A DNA stretch of 63,988 nt, filler included, from Folioceros fuciformis (Eukaryota), in the NCBI GenBank assembly GCA_049999805.1. It is 3 parts of one record of this genome, joined end to end, with 100 filler letters (N's around TTAATTAATTAA, not from the genome) between each part and the next. Parts side by side here need not be neighbours in the genome. Positions count along the whole stretch, not along the records: positions 37,257 to 63,988 come from JBNGIO010005931.1; 2 more parts are not named here. The stretch is one strand, 5' to 3'. The notes below the pieces were generated by a model. The model made no database searches and was not told the origin of the DNA. It worked only from the letters and a program-made list of their open reading frames with translations. Each line of letters begins with the position of its first letter. The stretch's first letter is position 1. The position numbers and the translations under genes were made by a program. Positions 3,852 through 63,988 of the stretch are shown one piece after another.

Positions 3852-3886
3852 ACTTTCGGTGCGCCTGTCTACCGGCGCCCGAAAGT
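3852..3886. repeat. Subterminal extended palindrome (24-bp core motif)
   Basis: ACTTTCGGTGCGCCTGTCTACCGGCGCCCGAAAGT; the core begins 226 bp from the inferred terminus. Confidence 0.85.
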
Positions 3887-4002: not shown

Positions 4003-7000
4003 CTAAACAAAAACATGAACGTCTCGGTTGGCCTCGGAATCGACAACTACATCTACGTCTTTAAGGCGCTGGCCCTCTATGTCTCCAAAGTCGTCTCCCT
4101 CCACATCTAGAACAGAGAAATGCGGGTCGTCTATAGTCTGAGGCGGAATTGTTCCATTCTCATCCCATATAGTTATAGCATAAAGGTCTTCCGGTGGCCT
4201 GTCGTCCGATTGTGAAAAAATCTCTCCTTTTTTTCCCAACAAACTGAATACCTGCATTTGACAATCCACGCTACCATCCGCGCAGACTTCTTTGGCCCAA
4301 AACTTCGTGGGCCCGTGCGAGAAGTGCTCTGTGCTGATCTCCTCATCAGAGTTTGGCAAAGAGCCTATGCCATTCACCCGTTGCATGATGTAAGTGGTAC
4401 ATCTTATATCCATATCCACTTCGAAAATATGCCTTCATCTTTGAATCGCAGACTGTAGAAATGACCCAGATCCTGCGCAAGCATCCACTACCCAGTCCCC
4501 TTCAACGGAGACCATATTCACCAACATACCCATTAAACCAAGGGGCTTTTGATACGGTGAGACGACTAGCGAATCTGCCGAGTGGAACAGATGGTTCTTC
4601 ACCCCAGCACCATGCCTTATGACTCTCGGAAGAAGGAATCCCTAATTCGTGAATAATGAAGCTTTTGTGTCCCGAGCTTCAGAGTGAACTGCACTTCCCA
4701 CAGTTAAATACTTGACAGTCTCTATTGCGCTTGCATTGGGAGGTATATTAGTCTTCTCCCACACTAAGGTTTGAATGGTTGCCTTCTTGCACCATGGCCG
4801 AAGTGCTTTCCTAGCCTGTGTAATCAGATCCATGCCATGCATAAGAACCACCCTATACACATTACTGCTGGTGCATTCTAAAAACCCTTGGATCATGTCT
4901 TCAAGCTCTTCGCTTGTCAACTGCCTGTCGTATTCATGTCGTTGCAATCCGCGAGACAAATCTACGAATAACAGAGTATACGGTCGTTTTACCAGAAATG
5001 TTTTCATCTCCAAAACGTTTCGATGGATAACTTGATACTTAGTCTTATTGTTACTGTTTGGGACTCTGAACTCTGATAATCCTGCATCTATATCTGCATC
5101 TACGAGTTCTGCTTTTCTTTTTCCATGCGCTTCTAATTTCTAGCAAAATAAACATAATCTTGAAAAGGCTTTGGCAATGCTTCAAGATCTGTGATGTCCA
5201 CTGGTTTCTGCCAAAAAGCATTTCGTTCAAGAAACCACACAAAAAGCAGAATCATAAATGAAGAATTACGTCATTCGAGCCTATGTAAGGAAAACATCAC
5301 TTCTAAGACTAGAGTGCGCCGGTAGACCGGCGCACACTCTCCCCAACCTACACGAAAGTCTTTTAAGTGGCCGGAGTGCGTCGGTAGACCATTTTTTCGC
5401 AATGCGTTATTTATTACGGAACATTCTAGAGATCTGGCCAGAGTGCGCCGGTCTACCAGCGCACTGTAGCCATTTTTCCGGAATGCGACGGAAGACAGCG
5501 CATTCCAAAGAAATCAACTAAAGTGCGCCGGTCTTCCAACGCAGTCCACAAAACTATCAGAAGTGCGCCAGTAGACTGGCGCACTCCAACCAGCATGCTC
5601 AAAAACATCTAAACACTTTGAAAAGCAAGTGTACCACTTAAGCAAAGGCGGTTTGGAACTTGAGTAGATGTGCGTCTTCCGTGTGCTTGGGATACAAGAC
5701 TTTCACTTCCTCAAATGTTGCGCACTTCAAAGCCATCCTAAAAGCATGTTGTATGAAATGTATCTTTTTCTTCTTCCCTACCTCTATGTCCATGTCTTTC
5801 AAGTGCAGCTTGCCCTGGATAACCTTTTGTGTCACACCTATAAGCATTTCCTCGCCTTTAACCCCTGTTGGGACTCCTTGAAAAGCCCTCCAAGGTCTTC
5901 CCTGCATTGCTGCAACCTTCTTCGATGAAACGTCTGCCATTTGCGCACTACTGGAAGCAAGTCCAGCTTCCCCAGGTTTCCTCTTGGCTTTTGCACGTTT
6001 CTTTGTCCTAGAGCTTTCTCCTATTATCTGTTCAAGGAGCTCACTCCTCTCCCAAATTCGGAATATCCTATCTACGTTTTCCCACATGATCCCACTACAC
6101 CTGGCCACTCAATATGGTAATGTCTGCCTGTCTACCATGTTTTGCACTCAATCAGTGTCCCGAGGGTCCCCTCCTTCATCTGTCATTCCAAGCAACCTGT
6201 ACAGATAAAACTTCCACTTCACAAGGGGCTTCTCATCCAAGTTGTGTTTCCTATAAAAGATATCAAGCTCGTCGTGTATATACCAAACTGCTCAATAAAG
6301 CCCATTCTCTTTCTCTTATTTGCGTAGACATTATGATCCATTGCGAGCACTCTCATTTCCTCCTCTATTAGTCCTGCATATACATGCCCCTCCATCCATT
6401 CATACTTGTCTTCAGCTAGGTACATCAAGTGCAGCTTCTGCATAGCTGCGAAGCAGTGGTTTCCTCCAAGCACTCCCATTTGATACTGTTGCGCTGTGAT
6501 CTTGTCCAGCGAAACATCTTCTTTTTTGGAATCCTATTTGGGATCTATCGTACAAAGTAGAGGCAAAATGCCTTCCTTAACTGACCCTGATTGCATCTGT
6601 CTGACCAGGCACTTCATCCACGCTTCGTCTACCTCCCATATTTATGCATCTGCTGTTATGTAAGTAGCCGGATGAAGGATGTCAACATGAAGATCAAACG
6701 TTGTTGATCGAATCCGTTTTGCATGGGCTTTTCTACGAACTGCATTCAAATAATCTTTGTCTTGCACAACTCTCTCCAACCTTTCTATGTCTGTCTCTAC
6801 AGTCCGTGGTGGCTCCTCTTCACAATTTGGACCTTGGGCCTTCCGCCTCTGCTTAGGCCGAGTAGCTACATCGCCTCCAGTAGTTGACATCCTGTTCCTC
6901 CTCTTCTGCGGTGAAGTAGCTGCCATTGAAACATTTGTCATTGTTAGGCAAGATGTTAAATCGTGTGGCAACCGAAGGTAACATGTTGCAAACAAAACAA

Positions 7001-8330: not shown

Positions 8331-8427
8331 TTATGTCAAAGTAGCCCTATCTTCAATCAAACTCCGAGTGACGTTAGCTTGCAACTTGTAAGGAAGGTCA
8401 TTTGCGAGCAATCCTTGAGACATTGGC

Positions 8428-10855
8428 ATGGATGGGCAGGCTTCTTCCTCATGAGAAATGGTGGCGATGACAACAGTGGAGTTCAACTCTCAAGGTAGGT
8501 GAGGAATTCGGTTTGTGAAGGACATTCGTGTGTTCTAGTTGGAAGTTTATGTATAAGTTTTCTGCTCGTGTCATGATGCCTTGAAGTTGATGACTCAGAA
8601 GGGTACGACATCAACTTCTGAGCTTTGCCTGTACGCCTTAGTCTTTTGGACGACGTCCATACTTCAAAAATCCCATGCGCATACACTCTCCTTTCAGACC
8701 AACGATCCAGAAAACAACACCTATCAAGCGGAATGCGGACAACACAATCTTGCACACTCACGTTGTTAATGTGGATGTTGAAGTACATGCGAGTGGTAGC
8801 TGGATACCCGGAACTTCAAGCGGGCTGTGCTTCCTTGCCGAAGATGAAGGAGTTGATGTGTTGTCGGAAGAAGATGGCATGACGATTGGCACTACGGTGC
8901 GAAGATCATACAATCTAAAACCATCATCCGAATCTCTGATTGAAACTCTAGGAGATCATCGACATAGTTGGAAGAAAAAAATCTCGACTATACCTGAGGC
9001 AAAGTGCTCTGAGATCCATATTTTTGTTGATTACCGCAGGATATGTTGTGCAAAGCAGGGTCTTAGATCCTTAGGAAAACCAGGCTTTCGGGATTTGAGG
9101 TACTGATTTCTAAACATGTGCATGACAGAGCAATAAATGTTTCTGCAAACATTGTTCAATGTCAATCGTACCACAAATGGACGCTCTACAGTGGAGACTT
9201 TTTTCATTGGATCTGCAAAGATACGCTGTTGTCGGGACACCTTTAGATGAGTTTTCTGTATCGGTGCGAACAAGTACGAGGCTGCGGAAGAAAGAGCTCT
9301 AGATAACATTGTGTGGGTGCACTCTATTCGTGCAGAGAAGCGCACCACAGACCGTGTTATGGCCGCATGTGTTTGGATGGATCAATTATTTTTGCTAATA
9401 GCAGAACGCATGCCGAACATCGAAGTGTACCACCTTCCAGACTCGTACACGAAAGAGGAAATTTTTTTGGAGTACAAGAGGCAAATGCAACAAGCGGAAC
9501 AGTACAATGTGTCTTACTCTTATTTTTGTCAGTTGTGGGCTTCACATTTTCACAAAGTGCGAATTCCGAAGACCAATAGGTTTTTGTTATGTACTACCTG
9601 TGACTACCTGAAAAGGAACATACGTTCCGAGTATAATAAGAAGAAACAAGGTACGTAAGAGTGTTTTAAAAGTGTGTTTGTTGTGGGCATTTCAAGTGCG
9701 TCGGTCGACCGGCGCAATTCCTTTCCTCCTTGCGTTATAAGCGCGCGGGTTGACCGGCGCACTCTATCATCTGGGTATAATAGGAATGCACCGGTAGACC
9801 GCCGCACTCCCTCTGCTGGGCATTACGAAGTGTGCCGGTCTACCGGCGCACCTCTAAATGCATTGATGGTAGGTGTGTGCCGGTCTAGGTAGACCGGCAC
9901 ACACCCACCATTAGTGCATATTTCTTATTATTCTGATTTGAAGTTCCATGCGTTTTTTGTAGAGGGCTTCGAATCTGACTTGAAGATACATCGACATAGA
10001 TTGAAAGTAGAGCGCGAGAAGAGTATCAAACATTGGGTCAAATGTTGTGGCGACCCCAGGAAGTACATTGGGATATCTGTGGATGGAATGGATCAACAAA
10101 AGACTTAGCTACCCCATTTCGTTCGAGTACCAAAAGATTTGGCGAATGTTGGCCTCCTTGATGTGCATGTGGTAGGGTGTATGATATACAACAAGACTAT
10201 AACACCCAAGCTCTTCATCGAGTTTGGGAACATTCGAAACGATGGGAACCTAACAATATCAATTATTCAGCGCGTGATACACGAGTACGACGGCCTGCTA
10301 CCTAGAGTTCTATACTTGCAGCTAGACAACACTACACGGGAGAACAAAAACAAGTTGCTTTTTTCTTATTTGAATATGTTAGTGGAAAAGCGGGTTGCAT
10401 TGCATCATTGGTTGTATTGTTAGTGGGCCATATGCACGACCAGGTAGATAAGATGTTTTCCAGGTTTTCAACGGCACTTAGTCGGAAGGAAGCTTTGACT
10501 TTACCAAAACTTATTACAGTCTTACAGAACGCGTATACCCCCATGCCAGACATTCATGAGGTGAAAGAGGTGTTGGGCTTTAGAAAGTTTGTGTGGCCTA
10601 TACCATATGGGAAAGCAAGGTATCAGAATGTTGCAGCGATTCATCAGCTCCTTAATATATCTTTTCAACCCCAGTTCAAGATCACGAAGGAGAGCCGCGG
10701 AGATCGTGGATCTCTTACAGTGATGAGAGGGAAACAGTATTCCACCGATCAATACTGGTCGCCTGATGATGATATGGAATTTCTCAAACTAGTTCCGGAT
10801 GAGGTTATGAAAGCCGCTCCACTGATGCATCTGCAGGTGAGGAGTGCTGGAAGGA
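8428..10855 (+). pseudogene. Sola/DUF7869-like DDD transposase (degenerate, copy A), intron 9651-9962
   Basis: Cys-rich N-terminal part (ICCAKQ...CCRDTF), WASHFHKVRIPKTNRFLLCTTCD. Putative catalytic motifs SVDGMDQQKT, YLQLDNTTRENKN and LLVGHMHDQVDKMFS. Cut by an LTR at 10856. Confidence 0.75.
9695..9904. repeat. Cluster of five 24-bp palindromes (about 45-bp spacing) inside the transposase intron
   Basis: Motif variants at about 9695, 9740, 9785, 9829 and 9873, between donor GTACGT (9651) and acceptor TTTTTTGTAG (9962). Confidence 0.85.
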
Positions 10856-13800
10856 TGTTCGCTTTACCTAATTAGGCTATGTAGTTAGGTTAAATTTAAA
10901 TATATATATACATATTCTATCCTAGGGCTACGAACGACGATTAGTCGTTAGTAACTGCCATGTCTCGTGAACACCACGCGAACGTCACTTGAATGCTGGT
11001 TCACTTGTTTGCACTCTAGCGTCGTGTGTCTTTCCTAGCACGGTTGTGCGCTTAATGCAATCCTAATCGCTGTTCATAAACGACATGGTATCAGAGCTTG
11101 GTACCAGGCCTTGAAGCTATCCATTCGCTCTCTGCCGAGGAGCTGTAGCTTTTTGTCGCCTGGACAGAAAGCAAATGGATATCTTCAATACCCTGCACAA
11201 ACAACTGATGTGAGATGGACTCCCTTGCCGCCAAGTGTGGCTGGTTGTTGTACCTGGCGAAATTTGTAGGACCATAGCTCGAGACGCTGATCTACAAGCT
11301 TGTCGACCAAACAGCCAGTCATGCGAAGGCGCAAGAGAGACGCAAAAGCCTGAAACTGCGCAAGAAGGTTGTCAAAATTCAGATGCGTCGATCTAGGAAC
11401 AGCTAGAAAAGTCAGGCTTTATGGATTGCTTACTGTGAGTAGCTGGCGCTGCTGGTGGAGCGACGTGAAGGCGCACATTCCGCTCGCGAATTGAGAAGCT
11501 GGTAGGACGCAGCAAGAATGGTCCAAGAATTGATGAAGGGAGGCTCACCTGCTCCATACGATGGCACACCGTCACCGCAGCCATAGAGGGAATCAGCATA
11601 GAGCCTTCCAGCCCGTACCTCTCTACAAAATTACCAACCTGCCCATTGAGAGGAATAGATAGCCAGATAGGCATCTCTAGAGAGAAAGGATCCCAAATTT
11701 AGCCACCGCTAATCCCAATATTCACCAGCACTGTAGGTCTGTGCAGCAACGTCAACGGGAGTCAGCACCCTTACATCTTGAGTCATTCACAAGAGAGGAC
11801 GAGTCCCTCACCGTTGCCGTGCAGCATCTCACCCAGAGACTTGACAACATCAATAGCACTGCACTCTGCCGAACCTAGCACATTCTTACCACGTTAGACA
11901 GTCTTACAGACCAGATAGTCAGGTTGGAGGATCACTTGCAACAAATAGATATCAAACTTTTTGTTTTGATGAAGCCACAGCTGCAGGAGAGTAATAGAAT
12001 TACCCAAACTCTTATGTCAAACCAAAGACGACCAAAAGTGTGCTGTGTGCATGTCCAGGCCGATGGAGTCCAACAATGTGGGTAGCTGTTGATTCATGAG
12101 TGAGCGAGGGACTTACACATCTCCAGAGTGGCTCAAGAAACTTGCTCAAGAAGTTGGGCTGATTGATTTTGATGACTACTCTGAAGAAGGTACGGATGTG
12201 GACTCTGGGCGAGCATCTATAAATACAAACTTGTCACACGAAGATTATTCCTGGTTCTGGAAATCCAAAATGGATGATGATGACAAAGCACGAGTTGAAA
12301 TGATCAACGCACTGCAATCTCTGACCAGCGGTGGTTTCAAGGAAAAGGACTGACTGGTCACTGGTGTTGAATATGACATCTGGGTCATGAGGATGCAAGG
12401 AGCATTGGAAGAGAAAAATTTATGTGAAATTGTGAGTGGTGCAACACCAAAACCTGGAGAGGGTTCTGCAGACCTACCTGTTTGGAGGCTGGCGAACATT
12501 AGGGCAAGAAACCTGATCAAGTCAGGCCTTGCACCAGAGATGATGCGTCAAGCATCTGATGGACCAGGTGACTCGGCAAAAGACATGTGGAACCATCTTG
12601 CTATGATGTTTGCCTCCCATGATATGGCGGCATCCGTGTCTACATCTGCAAGATATCATAGTTTGCGGATGTCAGAAGGGGAGACAGTTGAACATTACAT
12701 AGCTCGGTTTAGAATTGCCCGTGCAAGATTGAGTTCAACTAGGACAAAGATTTCAGACTACGACGCAGCTTGTAGATTGTTAAGTTCCTTACCACCAAGT
12801 TACGGGCCCTTTGTCACTGGTCAACAAGCCATGGCGAAGGTTGAGACCAGAATAGCCAAGGCCTTGAAGCTTGATGCAGATCCTCTAACTTTCAATGGAG
12901 TTGTTAGTGCGATGTTGCAGGAAGAAGCCACGCGGCTGTCTTTACGCTCTGCAAAACAGCAAACACAGGGTCAGCAAGCCCTTTTTGCAGGTAGAGGCAA
13001 ACCATTCAAGAGAGGCCGAGGTGGCTGGAGTGCAAACCGTGGTGGTAGGACAGCTGCAAGTGGACCTAGCCAAAGCTCAGGCAGCCAGAAGAGGACAGGT
13101 AGCTGCAATTGGTGCGGTATACCAAGTCACTTAGCACGTGACTGTCGCAAAAGAAAGGCCGGCGAGCCTAGAAAGGATGGTGCAGGATCTCCTAAGGCAC
13201 ACAATGTGCAGGCACCTAAGAAGAAGCACGCATAGGTAATTTTGACTATGTGCCTTACCACTGCTGGCTCGCATACCCCAGCGTGGTTCATTGATTAAGG
13301 TGCCTCTGCGCACATCTGCCACAACAAAGCTTCCTTTTGTGAGAACAGACCGTACAGGGAAGTACAATCGGTGCTGCTAGGAGATGAAAGCACATTACCA
13401 ATTGTTGGCATAGGCAAGGTCACGCTGCCTTTACATCACGGAGGGAATCTCGAATTAAGTGATGTTTTACATGTACCTGCAGTAACAAAGAATTTATTGT
13501 CAGTTCAGAAACTTACTGTGGATAGAGCAATGCAAGTTTCTTTTTGAGGGGACAAGTGCACAATAGTGAGGAGCACGGATCCGGGTGTAGCAATTGCTGA
13601 AGGATATCCAGTCAATGATATCTACCAATTGAGCACTCCCGGTAGCAAGTTACCTACCCTGAATATTGCTGGCCTTGGAGGCAATGTTTCCTCGCATGAG
13701 GTAGCCACTGTTTGGCACTTGAGGTGTGGCCATCCTCATGGAAAGAAGCTGCAAGCTGTGGCAAACAGTGCCTTGTATTCTGACGGCATTACAGGTCAAG

Positions 13801-17100: not shown

Positions 17101-19548
17101 GTTCCTCTTGAAACGAAGCCCCTACGACATCAGTAAAACTAATCTGTACTGGTTGTCCTGCAGCTGCAGCTTTTCCTGCATCACGTAATGATGCTCCATA
17201 ACTGGAAACGAAAGGCTGGTAGCTAGAAGGCAGACTTGTCAAAAGCTGGGCTACTGCATCTAATTCGGTCATGGGTGAACCTAGAGATGCAAGATGGGAA
17301 CGCAGATGTCTGCACTTAGCTATGAAGACAGCAACTTTCTCGTTGTCCTTCATACGTAAGGTAAGCAACTCGCCCCTAACAGCTACAAGTGTCAAAATGT
17401 TCTTGACATCGTAGGTTTGTGAAAGTTGGTTCCAAATATCCTCAGCTTTTGAAAGGAAGGCAACATCTGGTACAAGGACCTCATCGAGGCCACTGATGAT
17501 CAAAGCTCGTGCCACGTTGTTGGCATTATCCCACCTGCCCTTGTCCACTTAAGGAGCATTGATGGGAGGTTGTGGGGACTGCCCGCTCACGACAGTCCAT
17601 ACGTGTCCAGCATCAAGGGCTGCTTGCATGCGAACACTCCACACGGGGTACTTGTTCCTGTTAAACCTGTCACGTTCTTTGAATTCCACAGTATAAGAAG
17701 GCTGATAGGTTGCAGGGTAAAGAGCACCATATCCTGCTCCATGAGGTAGAGGCAAGAGTTGTTGTGTGCCTGCAGGTGCAACTGGCGGAGGAGCTGGGGT
17801 TGGCCATATGGTTCTGTGCCGAAAGCAGAGAAGGGATTCACAAAGCCAGCTCCTCCCCTTGGCAGTGGATTCACGGGCCCTGCTCCTAGTGTAGGCAGAG
17901 GGTTCCCGAAGCCAGCTCCAAAAGTCGGCAGTGGATTGAAAAGACCTGCTCCTGATGTGGCAGGAAAATATGTTGGCATAGTTCCAGTTCCTTGCGCAGC
18001 TGCAGTAAAGGTATAGGGTACTGTATTTGTGGCAGATGTAGATGTAGCAGCTTGTGTGATTGAGGCTGACACTGCCCCGCATGTTGCAGATGGTTGAGCG
18101 GCGGTGGAAGCCGCGGCGGATGTTAGCGCCGGACCACTTGGCGCGGAACCTATCGGCAAGGGCCCGCTAGAAGAGGACGCCGCGGCACCCGCAGCAGTGG
18201 CCCCAAGCAAAGCACCGGCTGCAGATTGCCCAAGACCCTGAGTCGTATCTGGATTTCCGGCCATGGTGTTGCGCTACAGGTCAGAGATACAGCAATAGGC
18301 TTTCTCAAAGGTCAGGGGTTCTTGCGGAGAGGTCACTGCTGTTTATGAGAGGAAGTACGGGTCTGAAGAGGTGCCTGCAAAGGTTGCGACTCTGCAATTC
18401 CTGTGCCAGGTAATCGTCTTCCAAAGCTTGTGCCGCTTCATAGCATCAGACGTGACCCTTCACATCTCCCTCTTGCTGCGCGCAGGTGCGTGGAGCGGCT
18501 AGAGATGGTGGAAACACACGGCGCCGTCAGAAAATGCTGCTGCGACAACCGTCCTTCGGAGATGTTTCCTCAAAATCAAGCGCGCCCTTCAGATGTGCTG
18601 CAAGGGCATTAATTTGTGTCTTGATTTCTTGGATGTCCAGAAGGATTTGTGCTGTCAAAGCTTGATTTCTGGTGGTGTGGCGGAAGAGCATAGCCTGCAG
18701 GTCTTGGTAGTCGATTGAGGAGGTCTCGTACGGAATCACGCTCAGCAAGTGACGGTGAGAGGCAGCCTGAGCATCACCGTGTTCTTCCTGAATTTGATGA
18801 ATGCAGCCCTTCCTCCTGTTGTTATTGCCAGGCCTGATGTGGTCTGATCGGCTTGGATGCAGATTAAACCTAGCCCTGGCCGGTGTGTTTGTAGCTGTCT
18901 GCTGGCGCGAGCCCGGATGCAAGCGTGAGGGAAGAGTATCAACCGAAGAGCTTCTGGAGGACGGACCACGTCGTCGAAGACGATCCCGTTCTCGAATGAA
19001 CCTCTCTGTGATAAAATTGTTGTAGCTCCTATTTCCCGGTTGCTTGTTTCTGCGAGGCATTTTGGAGTGCCGTGTGTCCTGTCTGCATACTACCCAGCAG
19101 TGATGCAGCGGAAGTCTTTTACTTGCAACTCAATCTGCCTTTTAAATTAGTGATCTCTATCTAATGTGGACATGCGGGTGGTAACGGATTGTCGCGCACA
19201 CGAACCGAACGCCATAAGGAAATGGTTGCCGGATTGTGTGCCCGATAAGCCCTTGTACTACATGCATCTACCACATCAGAATTAGATACATAAAGCAGAT
19301 TAGATTAGGATCGGATATCAAAGCCAGAGGATCGGATATCAAAGCCAGAGGCTCTGATACCATGTCAGTTCGCTTGGAGTTGCTGGGACAGCAGACTAGG
19401 AAAACATGGAAAGCAAAACAATGATTAATAACATTGGTCAAAGAGAATGTGTTATATACATATGTCTTGTTCTCTAAGTGACCTTTCGGTAACCCTAGCT
19501 ATTTAACCCTAAGAGTGGTTATATAAATAACCCTAAGTTATTCCAACA
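14149..19548 (-). mobile_element. Ty1/copia LTR retrotransposon (5' LTR 19363-19548, PBS 19351-19362, gag-pol through RT), 3' end in the gap
   Basis: Minus-strand TG...CA LTR followed by TGGTATCAGAGC. CNWCGTPGHWEREC, WYLDSGAT, integrase LRSDNETEF/QQNGVAERRN, RT QMDVSTAFL/LYGLKQS/LYVDD. Confidence 0.93.
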
Positions 19549-20256
19549 CTCTTCACTCAATAGCACTGCTTCCCGGGCTTTGATTGACTTTTTCCCCAAG
19601 ACATCTAGTGTCTGGAGCAAGCTCTCCGTAGTCACCTTCTTCGAGATATTGGATGAGCGCTTGGATGAGCGCTTTGATCCGCCTTCGCTGACCATTTCTT
19701 GGAAGACATTGTCATCGTCGACCTCTTCGATGTGAGCTTGTTTTGGTTCGTCAGACTCTTCCACGTCCTCATCTTTGGGTCGATCTCCGCTGTCTGCATT
19801 GTCAGAATTGTCTCCATCTCGACCCGTGATATACCTCTCAATCTTGATCTGCATGGATCTGGTTTGGGGTCTACTCCACCCATATCCAACTGTCATGAAC
19901 TCGTAATTCTCATATAGCCCTTTTTCAGCAACGATGTTGTCTTTTTCCCAAACCATGGTGTAGACGCCTCCCTTTCCACACCATTTTCGCAAGCCTTCGC
20001 GAATCTCACTCTTTTGATCTGGACTGTGCATGCAAAGTACTCGGAAAGTTTGACAATCAGTCACTTTAAAAAACCCTTCCATGATCTTTTCCATGTCCTT
20101 AGCACTAAACTCTTTATCCCACAGTTCTGCATAGTTTCCTCTTGGCAAATCAAGTATAAGAAGCTTGTACTCACACTTGTTGAGGATCATTAGTGGGGGA
20201 GTCAATAGGGAAGTGTAGAAGGTAGTTGTGTCAAATGTTGCTGGTGCTGGAGGGAA
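19549..20256 (-). pseudogene. Divergent third fragment of the transposon beta-class MTase-like domain (N-terminal half), cut by the copia LTR
   Basis: YKLLILDLPRGNYAELWDKEF...GFFKVTDCQTFRVLCMH...LRKWCGKGGVYTMVWEKDNI...YEFMTVG aligns closely with copies A and B. Confidence 0.7.
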
Positions 20257-20296
20257 GGAGTGGAGTGGAGTGGAGTGGAGTGGAGTGGAGTGGAGT
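20257..20296. repeat. (GGAGT)8 microsatellite
   Basis: Direct reading. Confidence 0.95.
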
Positions 20297-21399
20297 GAGG
20301 GAAGTCGCAAATCTGAGAGGTTAAAGTCATTGTAGTGACTAGAGTGAATTTGTGGGCACCAAGAGAGGTACAGTTGACTGCTAGACAGCGAAAACTATCC
20401 CACGCCTCATCGAAGCTGGAGGGGAGCCCTCGAATCTGTCATCGAGTCGATTGAGTCCAACCCTCCATCTATAGCAGCGAGGAACCCCATAGCTCCTTTG
20501 TGGGAACAAAACCCAATGTCTCAACGACAGTGGGATAAGTGCGGTCACTAAAGGTCAAACCCATTGGCAAACAGTGCCTGGGATTTTGCCACCACAACGG
20601 GGCACCTTACTCCACTTCCCAGGGATTTCCCACTACTACATCCCAGCACACCATATTACAAAAAAAGGGACATGTTATATATATGCAACCCGTGTTGTTA
20701 CGGTGTCCTAGAACAGTGGAATTGTAACTCTATCGTAACACGAAGCTTGTAACAATTTCTGGTGTTATGGTATGGTGGTTTGGGGAGAGGTTTACGCTCA
20801 GCTTTGGTGCCTTCCGTAAAGAGCATTCATTTATGCCTCCTTTATCGAGGCATTCGTTTGAATTGGCCGCTCTGAACCAGAAGCGCTCCCCACCAGCTAA
20901 ATGGTTGACCTCGATTGACATAACAATGTAGCATTATTCGCTATAAATGTGACAGGATTGGCAGAATGTTTTTCTATAAATTGGTAATACATTTGGTTGC
21001 ATGCAAAGCCATGGTGAAGTGCGCAAAGGGTTGACATGGTGTCTCCGTATATGGAGTTCCATTTCCTTTTGCTGTAAGCTCAAAATCAATGCACTCCCAA
21101 GGTGTACACACTTACATCGCTAAGCAATAAAGGAGGAACATGTTGATTGATTATGGAATCATATTCTCGCATTGCATATAAGATGGCCCTGTCACTCATG
21201 ACACTCCGGCGGTGTGGAAGGTCGCAGGTACCAAAACTCCCCTCGGAGCAGTCGGGTGACAAGATCTGGGTAGTTTTGTTTTGTGCTTGATCCATAGAGT
21301 GACTAATTACAGTAGTCTCGGCGGCCCCTTTTATATCCAAAAGTCTTCTTGGCCCATGGCAACTTCACTCTTCGGCTTTGTTTGTTTTTCTTTGTTTCT

Positions 21400-43048: not shown

Positions 43049-54089
<11,041 letters not shown>

Positions 54090-54917
54090 AAGGAGCGAGC
54101 CTGCTTTTCTAAGTGAATTGAGATACAGCTGTCTGTCGCACTGGGTTTCTTGGCGCGCGTATGGCCTGTTGCGAACCTACAGAATCGAACAACTCGATTG
54201 GCCCCGTTGTGGGATTACGCAACCAACCCACTTGGCGCCTCTGGCTCCCAGCTGCCGTTAGATGCTGTTACATCGGTGACTTTGAGACGATGGCATCCAC
54301 TCAATGTTTGCTCAGATCACTTCTGGCCTACGGGTCAGACTGAAATTAACATTCCGTTGCAAAAAGGAATCCACCGAATGCAATGGGGCAGGAATGCCCT
54401 TGCCTTTGGACCTTCTAATGGACTGTGGTTGCTTCCATTCCTCCTCTTTGACGAATGCCTGGTCAAAGCCATCTGTGTGCAGTCCATGGAAAAGCCTGCA
54501 GTGCCAAACTTGCACTCAGTAGTCAACTTGTAAATCAAGTAGAGCAATGAAAATGCGCAGTAGAAAGAACATCCCCAAAAGAGAAAGAAAGGGAAAACGA
54601 TTCCTATGACCATGATAAGACTCTACCACAGTCTCCACGAGTGTTGAGAAGTCCTTGCCCACATTTACGCTGGCCTCCATAGCACAGCAATAGAATACTA
54701 TTTTCCTAACTACACCATTGTGAAGGTGTGAACCTGGTACAATAAGAGGAAGGGCCTTTTACCATTTCACACATCTATTTTCATTTCTGACCATAATTAT
54801 TACCCATAGATCCTTGTATGATTCCATCACGTATCAAAATGATAAAAAAGCATGAAAATGAGTGCTAGGTCACAACCAAGACAAGGCGTAAGCCATGATG
54901 GTACACCACGGAGTGTA

Positions 54918-55447
54918 CCATGGACTGCACACAAATGGCTTTGACCACGCATTCGTCAAAGGGGAGGAATGGAAGCAACCATAGTCCATTAGAAGGTTCA
55001 AGGCAAGGGCATTCCTGCCCCATTGCATTCGGTGGATTCCTTTTTGCAACGGAATGTTAATTTCAGTCTGACCCGTAGGTCTGAGCAAACATTGAGTGGA
55101 TGTCATCGTCTCAAAGTCACCAATGTAACAGCATCTAATGGTAGCTGGGAGCCAGAGGTGCCAAGTGGGTTGGTTGCGTAATCCCACAACGGGGCCAATT
55201 GAGTTGTTTAATCTGTAGGTTCGCGACATGCCATACGTGCGCCAAGAAACCTAGTGCGACAGACAGCTGTATCTCAATTCACTTAGAAAAGTAGGCTTGC
55301 TCCTTTTATCTTGGAAAAGCAGGAGCATGTGACAGCAAAAAGGAAGTGGGTCCATGATTAGAGTACTGTCTAGACGTCAAGGTATCGTTTAGGCCACGGA
55401 CAGCACCGTCATGGCCATGGTCTGAAATGATTCTCCTTGTTGAGCTT
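54918..55447 (-). repeat. Inverted duplication of the CHR5 last-exon end and 3' UTR (53947-54489)
   Basis: Reverse complement of 54918-55447 matches 53947-54489 with scattered substitutions and a small deletion. The peptide RIISDHGHDGAVRGLNDTLTSRQ...HAPAFPR* appears on both strands. Confidence 0.93.
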
Positions 55448-57747
55448 TGTTTGAGAGCTTGTTGGTGGAGGCGGCAATGGAGCAACAAAGGCAAACAATA
55501 TCACCTTTACAAATCCAAGGTAGGCCTGCATTCCAGCAAGCAATGAGAAGGCTAATGTTGTACAAACAAAAGGATGTTGAGCATGTGGAGTACCAACTGG
55601 AATCTTACTGCCAAGACCAGAGTGTGATTGCTAGCAACCATTCCGTGCACCAAAGGATCATTGAGTGGAATGTCACCGATGCAGGGATCACACTGGTGGA
55701 GTTGTTTGTTGGCATATGCTCAGGGTTGGAAGCAATGTTGCGAAGTGGTGTGAAGATAGGGAGATATGTCTATTGTGACATAGATACGCAGGCTCAAGTT
55801 ATGGCAACAACACATGTGCAGGAGCTATTAAATCGTTATCCAAATTTGTTAGACAAGGGGGCGGTGAGGAACTTTCAAAAACAACTACCTATGGATGTAA
55901 GGCATATAGGATGGGAGCAAATCCAAGATTGGGAGTGTCAGTAAACCTGATCATTGCTGGGTGAGAATGTCAGGGCATGTCATCAGCAGGAGCAAGAAGG
56001 GGATTGTTGGATCCAAGGTCAGCACTATTCTTTGAGGTGACAAGGATCATTAGGTTGGTTCAACAATATCAACAAGAGCCATGTGGATACATTCCTAAGA
56101 ATGTTCTGGCAATGTTTGACAAGAGGCAAACTATGAAGGATAGCTTCAAACAAATCAGAGGAGTAGTGGGTATGGAAGATATCTTAATGTTGTGCACTTT
56201 GGATCATGTGCACATCGACTAAGGTGCATATGGACAAACATGCTGCCCAGAGAAGCATTGATGGCATGCAAGGATATCACAGTGCCAAAAATGGTGCAAG
56301 TGAAAGACATCATGTTTGGAGACAAGCATCCTCAAGAAGTCATGAAGTGTGAAAGTATGCCATAGTTCACTTTGAATGAAGTGGGAAACCAAGGATAGCA
56401 TGGCCAACCTTTGTAAAAGCAAGTGGCTCTTATGCTGACTCACCAAGGAGTGATGAGCTTAGAAGGAGATGATCTAGGAGAGCCAAATGCACGGGAGCGA
56501 GAGTTAGCCATGGGATGTGTCTATGGAGCCACATACGTGGAAGATGTGATTAAGAGAATAAGACGAAGGTGATTGGGCAGTCCATGGATGTCAGCATGTT
56601 GATGTGGTTGTGCAGCACTTGTGTAGCTTATCAATGGACTAAGTATAGAAAGGGCAAGGTAATCGTTGTGGTACCGCAAGCTAGGGCAACCAAAGCAAAG
56701 AAAACCAAGCCTATCGAAGCACAAGTTAGGTATGAAGATCGGCCCAAGTTGATGGAGTGGGACATGAATAAAGAGCTAACTATTGAGCAACAACAGCGAA
56801 TGCAAGTTCTCTTGGATGCACACAAGGACAGCTTTGCATTTTCGATGAGTGATCTAGGTTGTTGTACCAAGTCCAAGTTCTCTATTAAATTGCAGGGTGA
56901 GACACCTATAAGGATGCGGCATCATAAGCTCAACATGGCTGAGTGCGACATTGTGGAAGAAAGGTGTCAGGAACTGCTCAAGACAAGATTGATCAGGGTC
57001 TCAAATTCTAATTGGACTGCAGCCACTATGTTACCGTTAATGAAGAATGAAAGTTGGAGAATGGGTGGACCGACGAATGTGTGGAGATTATCGTCACTTG
57101 AATGCTATCACTGAATTGCATGGGTATCAAATGCCTACTCCTAATGAAGTCTTTGATGACATTGGAAGTGCTTGCTACTTCTCCACATTGGATCTTACGC
57201 AAGGCTTTAACCAAATTGACATCGTGGAGGAGGATCGGTGTAAGACGGTATTCTAGGGAAGAGATTCATTATATGAATGGCTAAGGATGCCATTTGGGCT
57301 AAAGAATTCTGTTGTGGTGTTTCAATAGAATGCTAATGGTGCATTGGCATATATGCTTGAGGCAAGTTGTTATGTGGATGACATCATTATCTTCACCAAG
57401 ACTTTTGAAGAGCAAATTCAGGTGCCGGAAAAAGTCTTTGCTAGGTTGAAGGAATGGGGTCTTAAATGTCATTCTCGTAAGTGTACATTTGCGTACAACA
57501 AGGTGTTGTACTTGGGACATGAGATTACTCCAAAGGGCATTTCACCTTACATGTCCGAAGTGGAGGCCATTATGAAATTGCCGGGGCAACTAACATTTCT
57601 AAGTTGCGAACATTTCTTGGACTTGTTAATGATTATCGAAGGTACAACCTAATATGAGTGCAATTGTGAGGCCATTGACGCTATTGTTGAAAAATGGTCA
57701 GGAATGGTGTTGGGGGCAGCAACAAGAGTTGGCATTACTAGAGGTAA
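55447..57747 (+). mobile_element. Ty3/gypsy remnant with a near-complete C5-cytosine DNA methyltransferase domain followed by RT; truncated by DNA transposon copy B
   Basis: Motif I LVELFVGICSG, YVYCDID, motif IV IIAG*ECQGMSSAG (about 55950-55990), DPRSALFFE, GSCAHRLRCIWTN, EPNARERELAMG, IGQSMD; then RT RRMCGDYRHLN, LDLTQGFNQI, CYVDDIII. Confidence 0.85.
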
Positions 57748-57973
57748 CAAGGTCTAAACCAGACGGGCGGATTCCACAAAGCCCGTTTTGCGCATTTGAA
57801 ATTTGTCTTGATCCTCGCTCCTTATCTACCTTTGATCTATTTTCACAAACAATGACGCCACCGACATGTATGCGTATATTATTTTTTCTCCAAATGTCAA
57901 TAAAACCAAAATAAATGAAGTAAACATTGTGAGTCTTCTACGCGAAACTTGATATTTTGCAACTAAAACATAT

Positions 57974-57997
57974 AGTGTGCCGGTCAACTGGCGCACA
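57974..57997. repeat. Subterminal 24-bp palindrome
   Basis: AGTGTGCCGGTCAACTGGCGCACA; 226 bp from the inferred terminus, as in copy A. Confidence 0.8.
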
Positions 57998-58058
57998 AGC
58001 TATTTAAAGTACTTCATGTTCAAGTTTAGGAAGAGTTCAAGTTAAATCAAGTCAATTG

Positions 58059-61000
58059 TTAAACAAAAACTGGGTCATCATGGTTGGCTTCGGAATCCAC
58101 AACTACATCTAAATCTCTCAGCCGTTGTGCATTCGTATCGCCAAAGTCATCCCTACCAACTCGTAGCACCGAAGTTGGGGTCCTCTATAGTTTGGGGCGG
58201 CAAAGTACAATTCTCATCCCAGACGGTGATGGCATAAAGGTCCTCCGCTGGCCTAATCATCACCTCTCCTTTCTTGCCCAACATATTGAACACCATCATT
58301 TTGCGATCTACGCTCCCATCACTCCATACTTCCTTCGCCCAAAACTTTAATGGGCCTCGTGTAAACGACTCTGTTGTAATCTCCTCATCTGCGTCAAGCA
58401 AAGGCCCCAACCCGATAATCCGCTGCATAATATATGAAGTGCACCTCACATCCACATCGATAGCCACCGCGTGCCTTCCATGCTGAATTGCACTTTGGAG
58501 AAGAGATCACGAGCCTGTGCATGCATCAACCACCCAGTCCCCTTCACAAGAAAACATATTAATAAGCATACTCATCAACCCTAATGGTTTTTGGTAAGGG
58601 GAGACGACATGCGCATCTACTGAATGGAAAAGGTGCTTCTTCACCACCGCTCCATGCCTTATAACCCGCGGTAAGAGAAATCCCTGATTTGCAAAAAGTG
58701 GAGCCTTCAATTCTTGAGCCTCTGTTTGCACTGCACTTCCAACAGTCACATATTCAACTATTTCCACTGCTCCTGCGTTTGGGGGTATGTTAGTCTTCTC
58801 CCATACCAATGTCTGTATGCTCCCCTTCTTGCACCATGGTCGAAGTGCCTCCCTTGTTTCCAATATCAGATCCACTCCTTGCATTAGAATAACTCAAAAA
58901 ATATTACTCGAAGTTCATTCGCTGAACCCTCGAAGCGTTTCATCCAACTCGGCTACCTTCATTTGCTTGTCATACTCATGCCGCTGTAATCCCCGAGGCA
59001 AGTCTGCACATAGCAGCGTATAGGGGCGTTTGACAAGAAATGCCTTTATTTCTAGTACATTCCTTTGAATAACTTGATATTTCACCTTTGAATTACTCGC
59101 TAAAACTCAAAAATCCAATAACCCTGCGTCCATATCAGCGGCCGCCAGCTTCTACTTCTCTTCTTCCATCCTTTTCCAATTTTTCGCCGAATATACAAAA
59201 TCTTGGAATGGCTTGGGCAATGGCTCCAAGTCTACTATATCTCCAGGTTTCTGCAACCAGAATAGTCTACGTTAGTTTGGATACCAATTTGGCTACTTTA
59301 ACCTGAGCAGACATGAGTGCTCCGGTAGACCGGCGCACTGGGGTCCCAGCCGGGAGAAGTCTTCTGGTGCCCTTGAGCCCTAGCCGGCTACACCAGTGCG
59401 CCAGTCTACCGGCGCACTGGAGCGCGAACTTCGGGAGTGCGCCAGTCTACCACCGCACTGGAGCCCGAGCAGGGGGAAGTGCGCCGGTCTACCAGCACAC
59501 TGGAGCCCGAGCCGGCGGGAGTGCGCCAGTCTACCAGCGCACTATATCCCGCGCCGGCTGCCCAAGTGCGCCGGTAGACCGGCACACTGGAGCTCGAGCT
59601 GGCATCAGTGCGCCGGTAGATCGGCACACTAAAGCCCAAGCCGGTAGCAGTGTGCCGGTAGACCGGCGCACTAGAGCCCCAACCGGCAGCATGCGGCGGT
59701 AGACCGGCGCACTGTAGCCCGAGCCGGCGGCAGTGAGCCGGTAAACCGGAGCACTAGAGCCCCAGCTGGCAACAGTGTGCCGATAGACCGGCACCCTGCT
59801 GCTCGAGCAGGACTAGAGTGCGCCGGTAGAGTGGCGCACTCTAGTTCAATAACCAATGCATTACGGGGGAAGGAAAACAACATCAAACAGAAAAAACTTA
59901 ATCTCTTTTGCTTCTTCAAAGGTGTCACACTTCATTGCGATTCGGAAGGCATGTTGTATCAAGTGAATCTTCTTCTTCTTCCCGACTTTAGTGTCCATGT
60001 CTCTCAATTGAAGCTTGCCTTGAATAACCTTCTGTGTCACCGCAATCAACATCTCCTCTCCCTTCACACCTATTGGGACACCTTGAAAGGCTCTCCATGG
60101 CCTGCCCTGCATTGCTGATGGCCTCTTGCTGCTATCTTCCGTCACTTGGGTAACATAACTTTGTAAGACAGAATCTCCTGTCTTTCGTTTCGCCTTTGCT
60201 CTTTGTGGTCCCTGCTGTTACCATGCTCTTCTGCTCTGGCAGCTCACACTGTTCCCACATTCTGAATATCCTGTCCACATTGTCCCAAAGTACCCCAAAA
60301 CATCTAGCTACTCGATATGGCAAAGTCTGCCTATCCACCATCTTCTGGACCCAGTCTGTATCGTGAGGATCTCCACCTTCGTCAGTCATACCCAACAACC
60401 TGTATAGGTTGAACTTCCACTTCACTGGCGGCTTCTCTTCCACTGAATGAGTCCGAAAGAAAATATCTAGCTCGTCATGGATGTATCGCACCTGCTCAAT
60501 GAACCCCATCCTCTTCCTCTTCTCTGCATAAACATTGTGGTCGACAGCAAGAACTCTCATCTCTTCCTCTATCAACCCAGCATAAATGTGCCCTTCCATC
60601 CATTCGTACTTATCTTCCGCGGGGAACATCTGGTGGAGTTTCTGCATGGCTGCAAAGCAATGGTTGCCCCCTAATACTCCCATATGGTATTGCTGCACCG
60701 TTATTTTGTCCAAGGAAACCTCTTCCATGCTCGCTACTTGCTTCGGATCAATCATACAAAGGAGGGGCAAGATCCCTTCCTTAACGGAACTAGCCTGCAT
60801 CTACCTAACTAAGCTCTTTATCCAAGCTTTGTCTACTTGCCTTATCTGAGCGTCAAAGGTGATGAATGACGTAGGGTGCAAAACATCAACATGCAGATCA
60901 AAAGTCGTGGACGGAATCCTCTTGGCGTGGGCCCTTCTTCCTTATCCCATTCAAGTAGTCTTCATCTTGCGCCAACCTCTCAGTATTTGTTCTACTACAC

Positions 61001-62500
61001 AAGTGGGCTCTAGCTCCACTTGCTGCACTGCACCGCCCTTCCTTCTCTTTTGCTTCGCTGCCTGCCCTCTTGCTGCAGAGCCTCCTGGTTTTCTCCGCTT
61101 TGTCTGCGGAGATGTTGCTGCGGAGACGTATAGCCGTTGTGAGATTGGGGTCAGCATTCAGAGCTTTTCCAAAAGAATCAATGTACCAAAACAACCCCAC
61201 AACAATCAGCTAAGCATACAAACAACAGCCTCATCGGATGTCATCTTCCACTGTTTCGATGGAGATGCAAATGCTTTCCTCTTCCGCTGCCCTGGTGCGC
61301 TGGTAGACCGGCGCACTTGGGTCACCCTCTTGCACGGTGGAGTGATCTCATTTGGGGACTCATCTGATGCATCACCCTCGCAGGAAGTGCGGGGCGTCTC
61401 CAGAGCATTGTTCAAACTATCTTCCGCTGAGGAGTATTGAGCCATCTCCTGGACTTCCTCCTCTTTGCTATGTTCTTGAACGTCAGGTGCCTCCTCTTCC
61501 GAAACTTCAAGTTTCATACGTGGCATCTCCTGCCTGTCCTTCAAGAAATCTACTGCACGAGTGTTCAATACACCAAATTCTGCTTGCATCGACTTCCGCT
61601 GCCGCTCTCCCACAAGTCGTGCCACAAGAGCTCTGTTCTTCAGCACTGTGTCTCCCACACAACGCAAAACAATTTGACAAAACTGTTCTCCACCCTAATT
61701 AGAGAACATACAAACACAAAAGTTAGGGTTTAGGGTCATTCTCGGTAATGAAATATTAAACTTTTAAGCTGAGAAGACCGCTTACATCCTTCAATAAAAG
61801 ACAGTCTTTTAGCGCGTTTCTCAACCACAACGGTTCGCATTGGCGAGGAATGGCCTTCGCAACTTTCACAACGACTAAACTATGACTGTTGTAGTCATCC
61901 GTAATGTGGCTTGGTGGGTGTCGGGTTAGGATGAAATTCACGTGAGTTTCGTCATCTACACCATCCACTGACGCACAAAGAATCCATCTTGCTCTTCCTG
62001 CGCCAAGCCTTGAAAACCATTCGCCCACATAGCAACAAGAGGAATCCACGGCAAGTTCAAGTCATCAGGCTCATCTTCAGCTATCAAAAACCATTCCTTA
62101 TCAGTGTTGAATCTTTTGGCCAGAGTGTCTTCTAACTTCTTCAGTCTCAATCTCTCACAAAGTTGTAAGTATTCAGAATGTTGTAATTCTGACTGCCTCC
62201 TGTACTGCCACCTTGATTCACATTTAGAGGAATGTGGTTCAGAGGTCCTTCACTTGCTTTTGAATTGGACTCTCTCACGCTCCCACCTGAGTTATTCTTT
62301 CTTCCTCCGGCGGTCTGGGTGTTAGGAGTAGCCTCTTCGCTAGCGGGTGGTGGAGGTCGGCATCCATCTCTTTCGCTGGTGTGACGAGACGACGCTCGCA
62401 CGGTTGCTTTCCCGGCTTGCCTTTGCTTTTGTAATCGGGGAAGCGCCTCGACATCCCTGTCCACGAGCAGCAGTTTGTTGCTCCGATGACCAGATGCCAT
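58059..62500 (-). pseudogene. ParB-like + beta-class N6A/N4C DNA methyltransferase-like cargo gene (degenerate, copy B)
   Basis: IRQVDKAWIKSLVR*MQASSVKEGILPLLCMIDP...VLGGNHCFAA...EEEMRVLAVDHN; LLCADLPRG (58990-59004); LVWEKTN; SPYQKPLGLMSMLINMFSCEGDWVVDACTGS*S...AIDVD. Confidence 0.78.
59316..59845. repeat. Array of 12 24-bp palindromes, about 42-bp period, within an intervening sequence of the cargo gene
   Basis: Cores start at 59316, 59395, 59436, 59478, 59520, 59565, 59607, 59649, 59691, 59732, 59774 and 59817; the linkers (GGAGCCCGAGCCGGCRGC-like) are related to one another. Confidence 0.93.
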
Positions 62501-62669
62501 TGGTGTGCAACCAAAAAAATGAAGAGTCAAAAAGCTCTTAATCTAATCTGGAGACGGAAGATGTTGTAGACGAAGTGCCCATGCAGCGGATTTGTACAAG
62601 ACAAAATTCGAAAAGGTACTGTGCAGCTCAAAAACGAATATCCAACGTTGCCGACTGCCAATGCATTTA

Positions 62670-62827
62670 TAGCGTGATGAAGGTCGTATCAGGTGGTGAT
62701 TCTCTCTGAATAGTTAGTTCTAATTTGGCTCAAACTTTCAAATTGAATTAGCGTGATGAAGGTCGTATCAAGCGGCAATTCTCGCTGAACAGCTAGTTCT
62801 ATTTTTGGTCTAACGTTCACATTGCAT
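62670..62827. repeat. 79-bp tandem duplication in the intergenic region between the two divergent transposon genes
   Basis: TAGCGTGATGAAGGTCGTATCA at 62670 and 62749. Confidence 0.8.
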
Positions 62828-62935
62828 TAAACACCAGCGGTTTGGGACTTGGTTGAGGGGCATTGTTACAACGCTGCAGATTTGAAAGCAAGTCCAGCCG
62901 AAGTTCATACTCACCCTTCTTTCTTTTCCGCTTCC

Positions 62936-63988
62936 ATGGCAAACAAACCTTCATCATCGTGTCGCGGTATGGAGAAGTTTTGTGAAGATAGTAGCGACGA
63001 AGGTTTGGAAGAACGGACGATGCTTTTGTTCGTGGATTCACATGAATTTGATTTGCTTCTGTTTTACTAACGCGTGGATGATTCTTATCTCCAAGAGACC
63101 ATCCTTGCAGACATCAGTTTGAGGAGTTGAGGTTGTCGCCAATTTGTTGGAGTCTTCTAGACGAAATTCATAGTTGTCCAAGCCCGTCATCTCCGCGACA
63201 TTCATTTGTAGGAGCAATGATGAAGATGACACCTCTAAGGGGAAACGCCGATGTCTGTAGGTTCTCAGGAGGGAGTGGCGCAGATGGTTGGGGCCTAGAT
63301 ACTGGAACACAGATGCAGGAAGTGAACGATTCCATGAATGCGAATGAAGAAGGGCCTTGCAGTGAGGAGTGTTCGGGCTCAAGACAAACACCAAGCAAAC
63401 GGTCGAGCTTTAATCGCAAGTCGGCGTCGGAGTCAATGATCGAAACTCCCTTAGATCATCGACGATGTCGGCGAAAGAGACCTTCAACAATACCAGATGC
63501 TAAGTGTTTAGAGCTTCGCATTTCCCTTGATTATAGGAAGATATGTTGTGCGAGACAATGTCTGAGACTGCTTGGCAAACCAGGATTTAGAGAGTTGCGA
63601 TATTGTTTTCTAAAGATGAGCAGGACAGAACAAGAAACCTTTTTGCAAGCACATTTTGATGTCGATAAGACTAAGAGCGCACATCCAATCGCGGAACCAT
63701 TCTTAATCGGGTCGGGAAAAATAAGGTGTTGTCGAGACGCTTTCAAAAGAGTGTATTGTATTGGTTCAAATAGATATGAGGGAGCGAAAGATCATGCTTG
63801 TGGGAACATTGTGTGGTATGGAGCTATCCACTCATAGCCACAGACTCTAGGCTACGTCGCTACCACGTGCGTATGGATGGATCAATTGTTTCTCCTCATT
63901 GCGGAGCGTATGCCAAATGTTGAAGTGTACCATTTGCCAGACTCTTACACAAAGGAGGAAATTTTCATGGACTACAAGCGGCAAATGA
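62936..63988 (+). pseudogene. Sola/DUF7869-like transposase N-terminal part (copy B, partial)
   Basis: DYRKICCARQCLRLLGKPGFRELRY...IRCCRDAFKRVYCIG...WMDQLFLLIAERMPNVEVYHLPDSYTKEEIF, closely similar to the copy A peptide. Confidence 0.78.

Follow-up and report, generated by a model that had tools for sequence, protein, structure and literature searches.

The methylase block and its copies

The window, meaning the whole stretch of 63,988 nt of Folioceros fuciformis DNA that was analysed (GCA_049999805.1; three joined parts, with 37,257-63,988 taken from JBNGIO010005931.1), carries on its minus strand two broken copies, here called A and B, of a gene that is predicted to end in a beta-class methylase domain and that has an arginine in motif IV, where such enzymes have an aromatic residue. 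The initial annotation of this DNA had recognised the methylase gene, and that part stands; it had missed that the gene sits in a repeated, multi-gene unit resembling a mobile element.

The last coding block of copy B (58153..59310, minus strand) comprises a linker, the methylase domain, which matches the Pfam family N6_N4_Mtase (PF01555), and an acidic tail. In translation, motif IV reads LLCADLPRG, with DLPRG (58990..59004) encoded by GAC TTG CCT CGG GGA. It is followed on the same strand by VWEKTN (58789..58806), by PYQKP (58585..58599), the counterpart of HPTQKP in bacterial relatives and in our assignment motif X, by motif I in the form DACTGS*S (58504..58527) and by IDVD (58450..58461), the acidic end of the strand after motif I, which we take to be motif II. 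The reading order IV, X, I is the beta permutation and the alignment of the relatives agrees with it, so that the earlier placing of motif IV ahead of motif I is confirmed by minus-strand translation of 58450-59004. Both copies pass the PF01555 cut-off of 26.7 bits, copy B with 33.4 and copy A with 27.0, and the match covers only profile positions 160-213 of 221, which correspond to the part from motif X to motif I; relatives of the window methylases score 30-66 bits. Five internal stops interrupt the block (59152-59154, 59107-59109, 58915-58917, 58894-58896 and 58507-58509). The last of these, a TGA, stands at the second Gly of motif I, where the relatives have Gly. The stop at 58915-58917 reads TGC in all the covering DNA contigs bearing the same organism label (12/12 in sequencing run X1 and 9/9 in run X2) and is therefore private to copy B.

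Copy A is 68.6% identical to copy B over 309 amino acids (tblastn, E 9e-149). Its methylase block lies at 4051..5139 (minus strand) and reads FVDLSRG at motif IV (DLSRG, 4948..4962), followed by VWEKTN, PYQKP, DACAGSGS and VDMD. It contains two stops (4642-4644 and 4435-4437), and the linker upstream of it (5090-5279) is in another frame, through a frameshift. A third locus, referred to below as the 20-kb fragment, is a solitary open reading frame (ORF) of 291 amino acids (19522..20394, minus strand) that encodes the N-terminal half of an Arg-type methylase only. It reads LILDLPRG (DLPRG, 20137-20151, minus strand) and VWEKDN, is without the half that holds motifs X and I, and is 39.5% identical to copy B over 114 amino acids (tblastn, E 4e-20). 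No partner block of the repeated unit was found near it. The readings first proposed, DLPRG in copy B and in the 20-kb fragment and DLSRG in copy A, with the Tyr-to-Arg change common to all three, are borne out by translation; the form (D/N/S)-P-P-(Y/F/W) occurs in none of them, since the window copies read D-L-P-R-G or D-L-S-R-G. Copies A and B, as they stand in the window, are pseudogenes with stops and frameshifts. The suggestion that the module is still retained thus fails for these loci and holds for the family to which they belong.

Motif IV across the family

Homologues were collected with HMMER, using copy A with its stops written as X as the query against 1.84 billion representative sequences. 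There were 75 matches at E<=1e-3, 13 of them at E<=1e-10 and two at E<=1e-30; the named family members are GBG66685.1 of Chara braunii and Gb_37443 of Ginkgo biloba. P0009, a match of 2954 residues, was rejected as a family member, being a repetitive bacterial surface protein matched through its low-complexity tail only. A word-indexed protein search with copy A at near lengths gave no match. The same kind of search with the family alignment returned mostly prokaryote-type methylases and a sole addition to the family, P0081; with the alignment of the N-terminal domain (see below) at longer lengths, it returned just two of its own inputs. Since these searches added no members of wider range, the known taxonomic range stays with the Chara and Ginkgo names. 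A metagenome scan with P0018 found no relative. Among the database entries, P0028 (1825 residues) contains two full units of N-terminal domain plus methylase in tandem, reading DFPYG and DLPYG; it probably represents two adjacent family copies fused by the gene caller, a hint that the family forms clusters in another genome.

Amino-methyltransferases are characterised by an aromatic residue in motif IV that stacks on the flipped base. DLPRG is found in six intact ORFs among the HMMER matches (P0003, P0004, P0005, P0024, P0051 and P0061). Of the remaining matches that extend over the motif, most have D-[IAFVP]-P-Y-G and two have His for the Tyr; the motif of P0012 is degenerate. All 116 prokaryote-type homologues fetched with the family profile (116/116) have Tyr at the position of the Arg, so that Arg at motif IV is rare. 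In a maximum-likelihood tree of 26 rows, from which the five motif IV columns had been removed and six short rows left out, all six Arg rows group together in a single clade (support 89/71) within the eukaryotic family, surrounded by D-x-P-Y-G relatives that include the Chara and Ginkgo proteins; that family is itself separated at 100/99 from three bacterial-type rows. The Arg codons of the three window copies are all different (CGG, CGC and AGA). Because six intact ORFs carry DLPRG, the Arg rows fall in a single clade and the Arg codons differ, DLPRG is, on this comparative evidence, an old and selected trait of the whole clade and not decay. It had been proposed beforehand that the motif was more than decay, the alternative being that intact copies would read DLPY; six intact database ORFs read DLPRG.

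Comparison of five Arg rows with 14 Tyr rows, column by column, gave only six fixed differences. Within motif IV, the Arg rows have Leu for Ile, Ala or Phe before the Pro, Arg for Tyr, and Leu for Phe after the Gly. Elsewhere, Asn is replaced by Lys at position 160 of P0004 and by Ser before PYQKP, and motif I ends in Ser where the Tyr rows have Thr. None of these differences supplies the Arg with a new acidic partner. The Arg rows are unchanged in the W-x-K-x-N block, in PYQKP, in the GSG of motif I with the acidic motif that follows, and in the Asp, Pro and Gly of motif IV.

Fold and selection

An AlphaFold2 model was made of P0004, the closest intact relative over the whole methylase domain (35% identical), in place of a broken copy, with the 75-row alignment. 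Its mean predicted local distance difference test (pLDDT) score is 70.5; within 71-210 and 221-320 the means of ten-residue blocks are 81-98, with values above 90 in the core, and the tail is disordered. The strand at 92-98 ends at D98-L-P-R-G102. The best matches of the model in the PDB (Foldseek) were M.BceJIV, CcrM, M.MboIIA, M.RsrI, the bdelloid N4CMT, M1.HpyAVI and M.PvuII, with E values of 7e-13 to 4e-10 and a probability of 1.00 for the top matches. The modelled fold is of the Rossmann type and identifies the gene as one for a beta-class (N6/N4 amino) methyltransferase, as the initial annotation had proposed. Phage records match P0004 in the motif X to motif I part only, with a coverage of at most 41%.

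Identity between copies A and B at codon positions 1, 2 and 3 is 0.76, 0.88 and 0.44 in the methylase, 0.89, 0.92 and 0.43 in the first part of the N-terminal domain, 0.81, 0.86 and 0.42 in its second part, and 0.75, 0.79 and 0.47 in the DUF7869 block described below. The non-synonymous distance (Nei-Gojobori dN) is 0.09-0.27, and synonymous sites are saturated. Conservation of the first two positions next to a third position near saturation indicates that the proteins were long under purifying selection. Copies A and B therefore represent old lineages that separated under such selection, and their stops came late.

A repeated unit with a second gene and palindrome arrays

Self-alignment of the window shows colinear patches of about 70% identity between 4004-9487 and 58060-63987, confined to the coding blocks. 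The two copies of the unit, which is at least 7 kb long, are in the same orientation and 54 kb apart in the window. The left edge of the homology lies near 3628 and 57745.

The minus-strand blocks are arranged in the order: two upstream blocks, a basic stretch, an N-terminal domain, a middle block, non-coding DNA and the methylase block. The upstream conserved coding blocks of copy B (61500-61730 and 61780-62383, minus strand) are 47-77% identical in amino acids to those of copy A (7305-7532 and 7581-8195, minus strand), in one frame only, and are candidate parts of the same gene as the methylase. The N-terminal domain of copy B (60135..60941, minus strand) is specific to the family, with the motifs Y..VLGGxH...A and VY.GL..EE..L..HN; it is interrupted by a single TAG stop (60801-60803). 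The middle block (59864..60217, minus strand), homologous to the inter-domain stretch of P0018 and P0045, is out of frame with the block upstream. In copy A, the N-terminal domain and middle block (5641..6740, minus strand) contain stops and one frameshift, the N-terminal domain extending down to 6028 and the middle block occupying 5641-6108. Both align with the N-terminal parts of the long members P0018, P0045, P0039, P0006 and P0025, so that this architecture is common to Tyr-type relatives. The joints seen in DNA contigs are without canonical intron ends and are uninformative on splicing. A sequencing run guessed to be RNA gave 0 contigs on 57900-61000.

The kinship with phage ParB-methylases implied at the outset is not established, as the N-terminal domain has no significant ParB match in Pfam, in PDB profile searches, with hhalign, with Foldseek or with VIA. 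Against Pfam, no ParB family was found, and one of seven members matched DUF6551 (E 0.0034); against the PDB, neither phmmer nor a profile search gave a ParB match; and hhalign with the bacterial-type P0063 gave a probability of 0.2. The AlphaFold model of the domain is poor (pLDDT 52). Its six best Foldseek rows are Noc, KorB, Spo0J and ParB proteins, at E 0.18-0.75 and a probability of at most 0.15, and with VIA the Z scores are at most 4.6 and cover the helical part only. Atlas associates the domain with DUF3723 clusters from fungi (0.94), recognition falling slightly short of the threshold. A ParB-like fold is suspected; the label is not confirmed.

Divergently from the methylase gene, the unit carries a second gene, which encodes a DUF7869 protein. 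In copy A it spans 8942..10872 on the plus strand, in pieces 8942-9598, 10019-10420 and 10306-10872 (Pfam E 6e-21 and 1e-15 for two pieces), with stops, one frameshift and a palindrome-bearing gap at 9696-9851. In copy B only its start lies in the window (63442..63987, plus strand; 62% amino acid identity to 8942-9487), the gene running off the window end. In Atlas, it falls among DUF7869 clusters from arthropods and molluscs only, plus one diatom cluster without a family. Its patchy, mostly animal distribution, together with a resemblance in its pattern of three acidic motifs, suggests that it could be the transposase of the element.

With at most three mismatches allowed, the window contains 21 matches to a 22-nt palindrome, GTGCGCCGGT-MK-ACCGGCGCAC, compared with an expectation of 0, and none of them falls outside the two units. 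In copy B, an array of 10.6 units of 42 bp with eleven palindromes (59394..59840) separates the middle block from the methylase block. Copy A has three palindromes at the equivalent position (5314..5584), four more, spaced by 44-45 bp, in the gap of its DUF7869 gene (9696..9851), and a single one below the methylase stop (3859..3880), whose copy B counterparts are at 57975-57996 and 61295-61316. The array also yields long spurious ORFs on both strands (59307-59840), with peptides of the SAPVYRRTGA type, by which a gene caller could be misled.

DNA contigs from three runs of one sample were placed on 57900-61000 at a likeness of at least 80%. Two of these runs contain 0.58 of the sampled words of the stretch. 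The numbers of matching contigs were 725, 742 and 501 in the three runs; those of X1 comprised 58 at 99% likeness or more, 107 at 95-99%, 269 at 90-95% and 291 below 90%, and contigs with internal deletions were also among the matches. The stretch is thus present in many diverged copies, of which these short contigs show the multiplicity and not a count. The third run, X3, has an excess of G>A differences (196 places, versus 99 for C>T), and at many places all its contigs differ while those of X1 and X2 do not; base conversion of the library, as with bisulfite, is a possible cause.

Neighbouring features of the window

The rest of the window holds other eukaryotic content: copia- and gypsy-type retroelement ORFs, an intron-split CHD1-like SNF2 gene and an ABC transporter ORF. 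The gene for the CHD1-like chromatin remodeller (45040-53200, plus strand) shows Chromo, SNF2-rel_dom, Helicase_C and HTH_CHD1_Hrp3 matches (Pfam) in separate ORF pieces, and an inverted duplicate of about 540 bp, 93.7% identical (53947-54489 versus 54918-55447), lies downstream of it. An open ORF of 719 amino acids (387-2543, minus strand) with ABC_tran and ABC2_membrane domains encodes an ABCG-type half transporter, next to a run of N at 2722-2821. Copia-type pieces (gag, integrase and RVT_2) are found at 12354-13232 (plus strand), 15218-18166 (minus strand) and 35050-39982 (plus strand), with runs of N nearby, described as paired 44-N runs, at 14049-14148 and 37157-37256. Gypsy-type reverse transcriptase fragments occur at 56554-57740 and 41146-41670 (both plus strand), and a degenerate tandem repeat at 41740-42080 (plus strand), within an ORF resembling reverse transcriptase, would encode Thr/His/Pro-rich peptides. 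The fragment at 56554-57740 abuts copy B and was considered as part of the unit; this was rejected, as it has no counterpart beside copy A. It is cut where the homology of the units begins, which suggests that one element was inserted into the other.

Explanations of the unit and of its arginine motif

The linked genes, the repeats specific to the unit, the selection on all its proteins, the many diverged or deleted copies and the late decay together argue for a mobile element with an accessory gene, the element being most likely a DNA transposon. We consider it likely that the stretch around copy B is the catalytic core, in the last coding block, of a decayed accessory gene of such an element, itself present in many copies; the gene belongs to a clade with Arg throughout in motif IV. 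The gene product would consist of the upstream blocks, the family-specific N-terminal domain, a helical middle block and the C-terminal beta-class methyltransferase domain. D-x-P-Y-G would have changed to D-L-P-R-G a single time, in the common ancestor of the Arg clade within the eukaryotic family, and the new motif would then have been kept by purifying selection together with an intact-looking pocket for S-adenosylmethionine (SAM). The DNA on which the protein acts may be that of the element itself; the protein would probably attach to the palindrome arrays by its N-terminal part, and the methylase domain would bind SAM and engage a flipped base. Either role, catalytic or binding, would control transposition or blunt host silencing.

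Several observations weigh against parts of this explanation. The ends of the element, terminal inverted repeats or a target-site duplication were not found around the units, a search for inverted repeats and a short-word BLAST of the flanks having given weak AT-rich pairs only. The DUF7869 gene has no support as a transposase in Pfam, where the family is listed as unknown, in NCBIfam or in the PDB; our literature search found no paper on DUF7869; and its linkage to the methylase is seen in two copies, both inside the window. The copy number comes from short contigs of one sample, possibly the window's own source, and a single spliced mRNA made from the blocks is putative. In the tree, the support of the Arg clade (89/71) is below the star threshold of the tree tool and the branch of the 20-kb fragment is very long. 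Amino methylation could, moreover, well be abolished by a positively charged Arg next to the nitrogen that accepts the methyl group.

The absence of ends would also fit a host gene family, perhaps domesticated like the bdelloid N4CMT or the Marchantia DN4MT1, that was locally duplicated and then decayed without any mobile element. The same-orientation copies 54 kb apart, and the annotation of the Chara and Ginkgo relatives as ordinary proteins, are compatible with this; yet hundreds of diverged contigs match the stretch, alignment restricted to coding blocks with near-saturated third positions speaks of old lineages rather than of a local duplication, both copies have the DUF7869 gene and the palindromes restricted to the unit, and each of them is broken. 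We regard such an origin as improbable. Far less probable still is that DLPRG reflects decay or chance in dead copies of an ancestor that read D-L-P-Y-G. All three window copies are indeed broken or truncated and copy A has already drifted to DLSRG, but the intact DLPRG ORFs, the three different Arg codons and the single Arg clade refute this.

A more serious question is what the Arg-type domain does within a mobile element. It might be catalytically dead and still bind SAM, DNA or both, serving as a reader or a clamp of element DNA, or else pairing, itself inactive, with an active Tyr-type paralogue, in the way METTL14 accompanies METTL3. CcrM, its second-best structural match, is a beta-class enzyme, and such enzymes work as dimers, which suits a partner role. 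The base-stacking aromatic is gone while every prokaryote-type homologue fetched keeps its Tyr, and in the bdelloid N4CMT a change of SPPY to APPA abolishes activity (PMC8885841). On the other side, proteins only 35-40% identical to one another retain every motif of the SAM pocket as well as Asp, Pro and Gly in motif IV, and the window holds no Tyr-type copy. Such conservation sets the clade apart from the known inactive partners (METTL14, MTA9 and DNMT3L type), where a degenerate catalytic motif goes with a degenerate SAM pocket and an obligatory active partner. Loss of function in this sense is a real possibility that we rate below an even chance. We lean slightly towards a domain that is still catalytic, with an altered target or chemistry. 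A working pocket is suggested by the conserved Asp-x-Pro-x-Gly and SAM motifs; ordinary amino methylation is made less likely by the missing stacking ring and by the positive charge where the methyl group would be accepted. The more specific proposal that the Arg-clade enzyme is guided by its N-terminal module to the 22-nt palindromes, where it would write an unusual mark, on a base, atom or substrate other than those of N6-methyladenine (6mA) or N4-methylcytosine (4mC), is rather unlikely.

Relation to known systems

With the beta-class N6/N4 enzymes M.RsrI, M.MboIIA, CcrM, M.BceJIV and M.PvuII, the present methylase shares the order IV, X, I, the fold (probability 1.00), the Asp, Pro and Gly of motif IV, a GSG motif I and PYQKP in place of HPTQKP. 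It differs from them in motif IV, where Arg takes the place of the aromatic residue and Leu that of the first Pro, and in that Pfam aligns only the C-terminal quarter of the domain. It is, moreover, encoded by a eukaryotic gene, which is interrupted by non-coding DNA and also encodes unrelated blocks on the N-terminal side.

The closest published parallel is provided by red-algal PAG elements: Plavaka, Zisupton and Mutator transposons of red algae carry PAG2 (PF01555 plus SET) and PAG3 (ParB-like plus 2-oxoglutarate (2OG) oxygenase), and these genes adjoin tandem inverted repeats (10.1101/2025.02.11.637652). Both cases combine a transposon-like unit, a PF01555 gene, inverted-repeat arrays beside a putative DNA-binding module and copies that are mostly degenerate. 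In contrast to the red-algal cassette, the putative transposase here is a DUF7869 protein and not of the named CACTA or Plavaka type, the methylase and the N-terminal module are in one gene, and the named relatives are streptophytes. No Pfam match to a SET or 2OG domain was found in window ORFs of at least 100 amino acids or in the read-through blocks. Phage fusions of ParB with N6_N4 methylases (10.1101/2025.10.10.680097) have the same layout of an N-terminal module followed by a C-terminal PF01555 domain; they differ in that the N-terminal module here is without a significant ParB match and that the likeness to phage proteins is limited to the part from motif X to motif I.

DAM-type adenine methylases occur in DIRS and long terminal repeat (LTR) retrotransposons (10.64898/2026.05.21.726589), and are likewise prokaryote-derived amino-methylases of putative activity on eukaryotic mobile elements. 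They belong to another methylase family, keep the Asn-Pro-Pro-aromatic pocket and are fused into retrotransposon polyproteins, whereas the present unit is DNA-transposon-like. DNA methyltransferases (DNMTs) also occur in retrotransposons (PMC5890265). From the DAM-type, DNMT and PAG cases alike, the present one is set apart by the type of element, the domain make-up and the Arg. The bdelloid N4CMT (PMC8885841) and the Marchantia DN4MT1 (10.1101/2021.02.12.428880) are, like the gene described here, eukaryotic PF01555 methylases, and N4CMT is a structural match; unlike it, they are single host genes with proven 4mC roles, not repeated and without a transposase-like neighbour, and N4CMT has a canonical SPPY motif in place of the Arg motif (PMC8885841). 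A 2015 survey of eukaryotic adenine methylases reports few such enzymes in land plants (PMC4738411).

Our literature search found no description of a DLPRG methylase clade, only these analogues (PAG, the phage fusions, DAM and DNMT, N4CMT and DN4MT1). Mobile elements that carry methylases as accessories are already known, and what is new here is the selected, non-canonical catalytic motif. TET/JBP genes are carried by mobile elements in fungi, and the present unit adds a case from the green lineage, on a different type of element, to the mobile elements that carry DNA-modifying genes. Should the enzyme write an unusual mark after all, the element could use it to govern its own transposition or to evade silencing by the host. 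In any event, a natural clade with Arg for the aromatic residue under long purifying selection is a ready-made experiment on the role of that residue.

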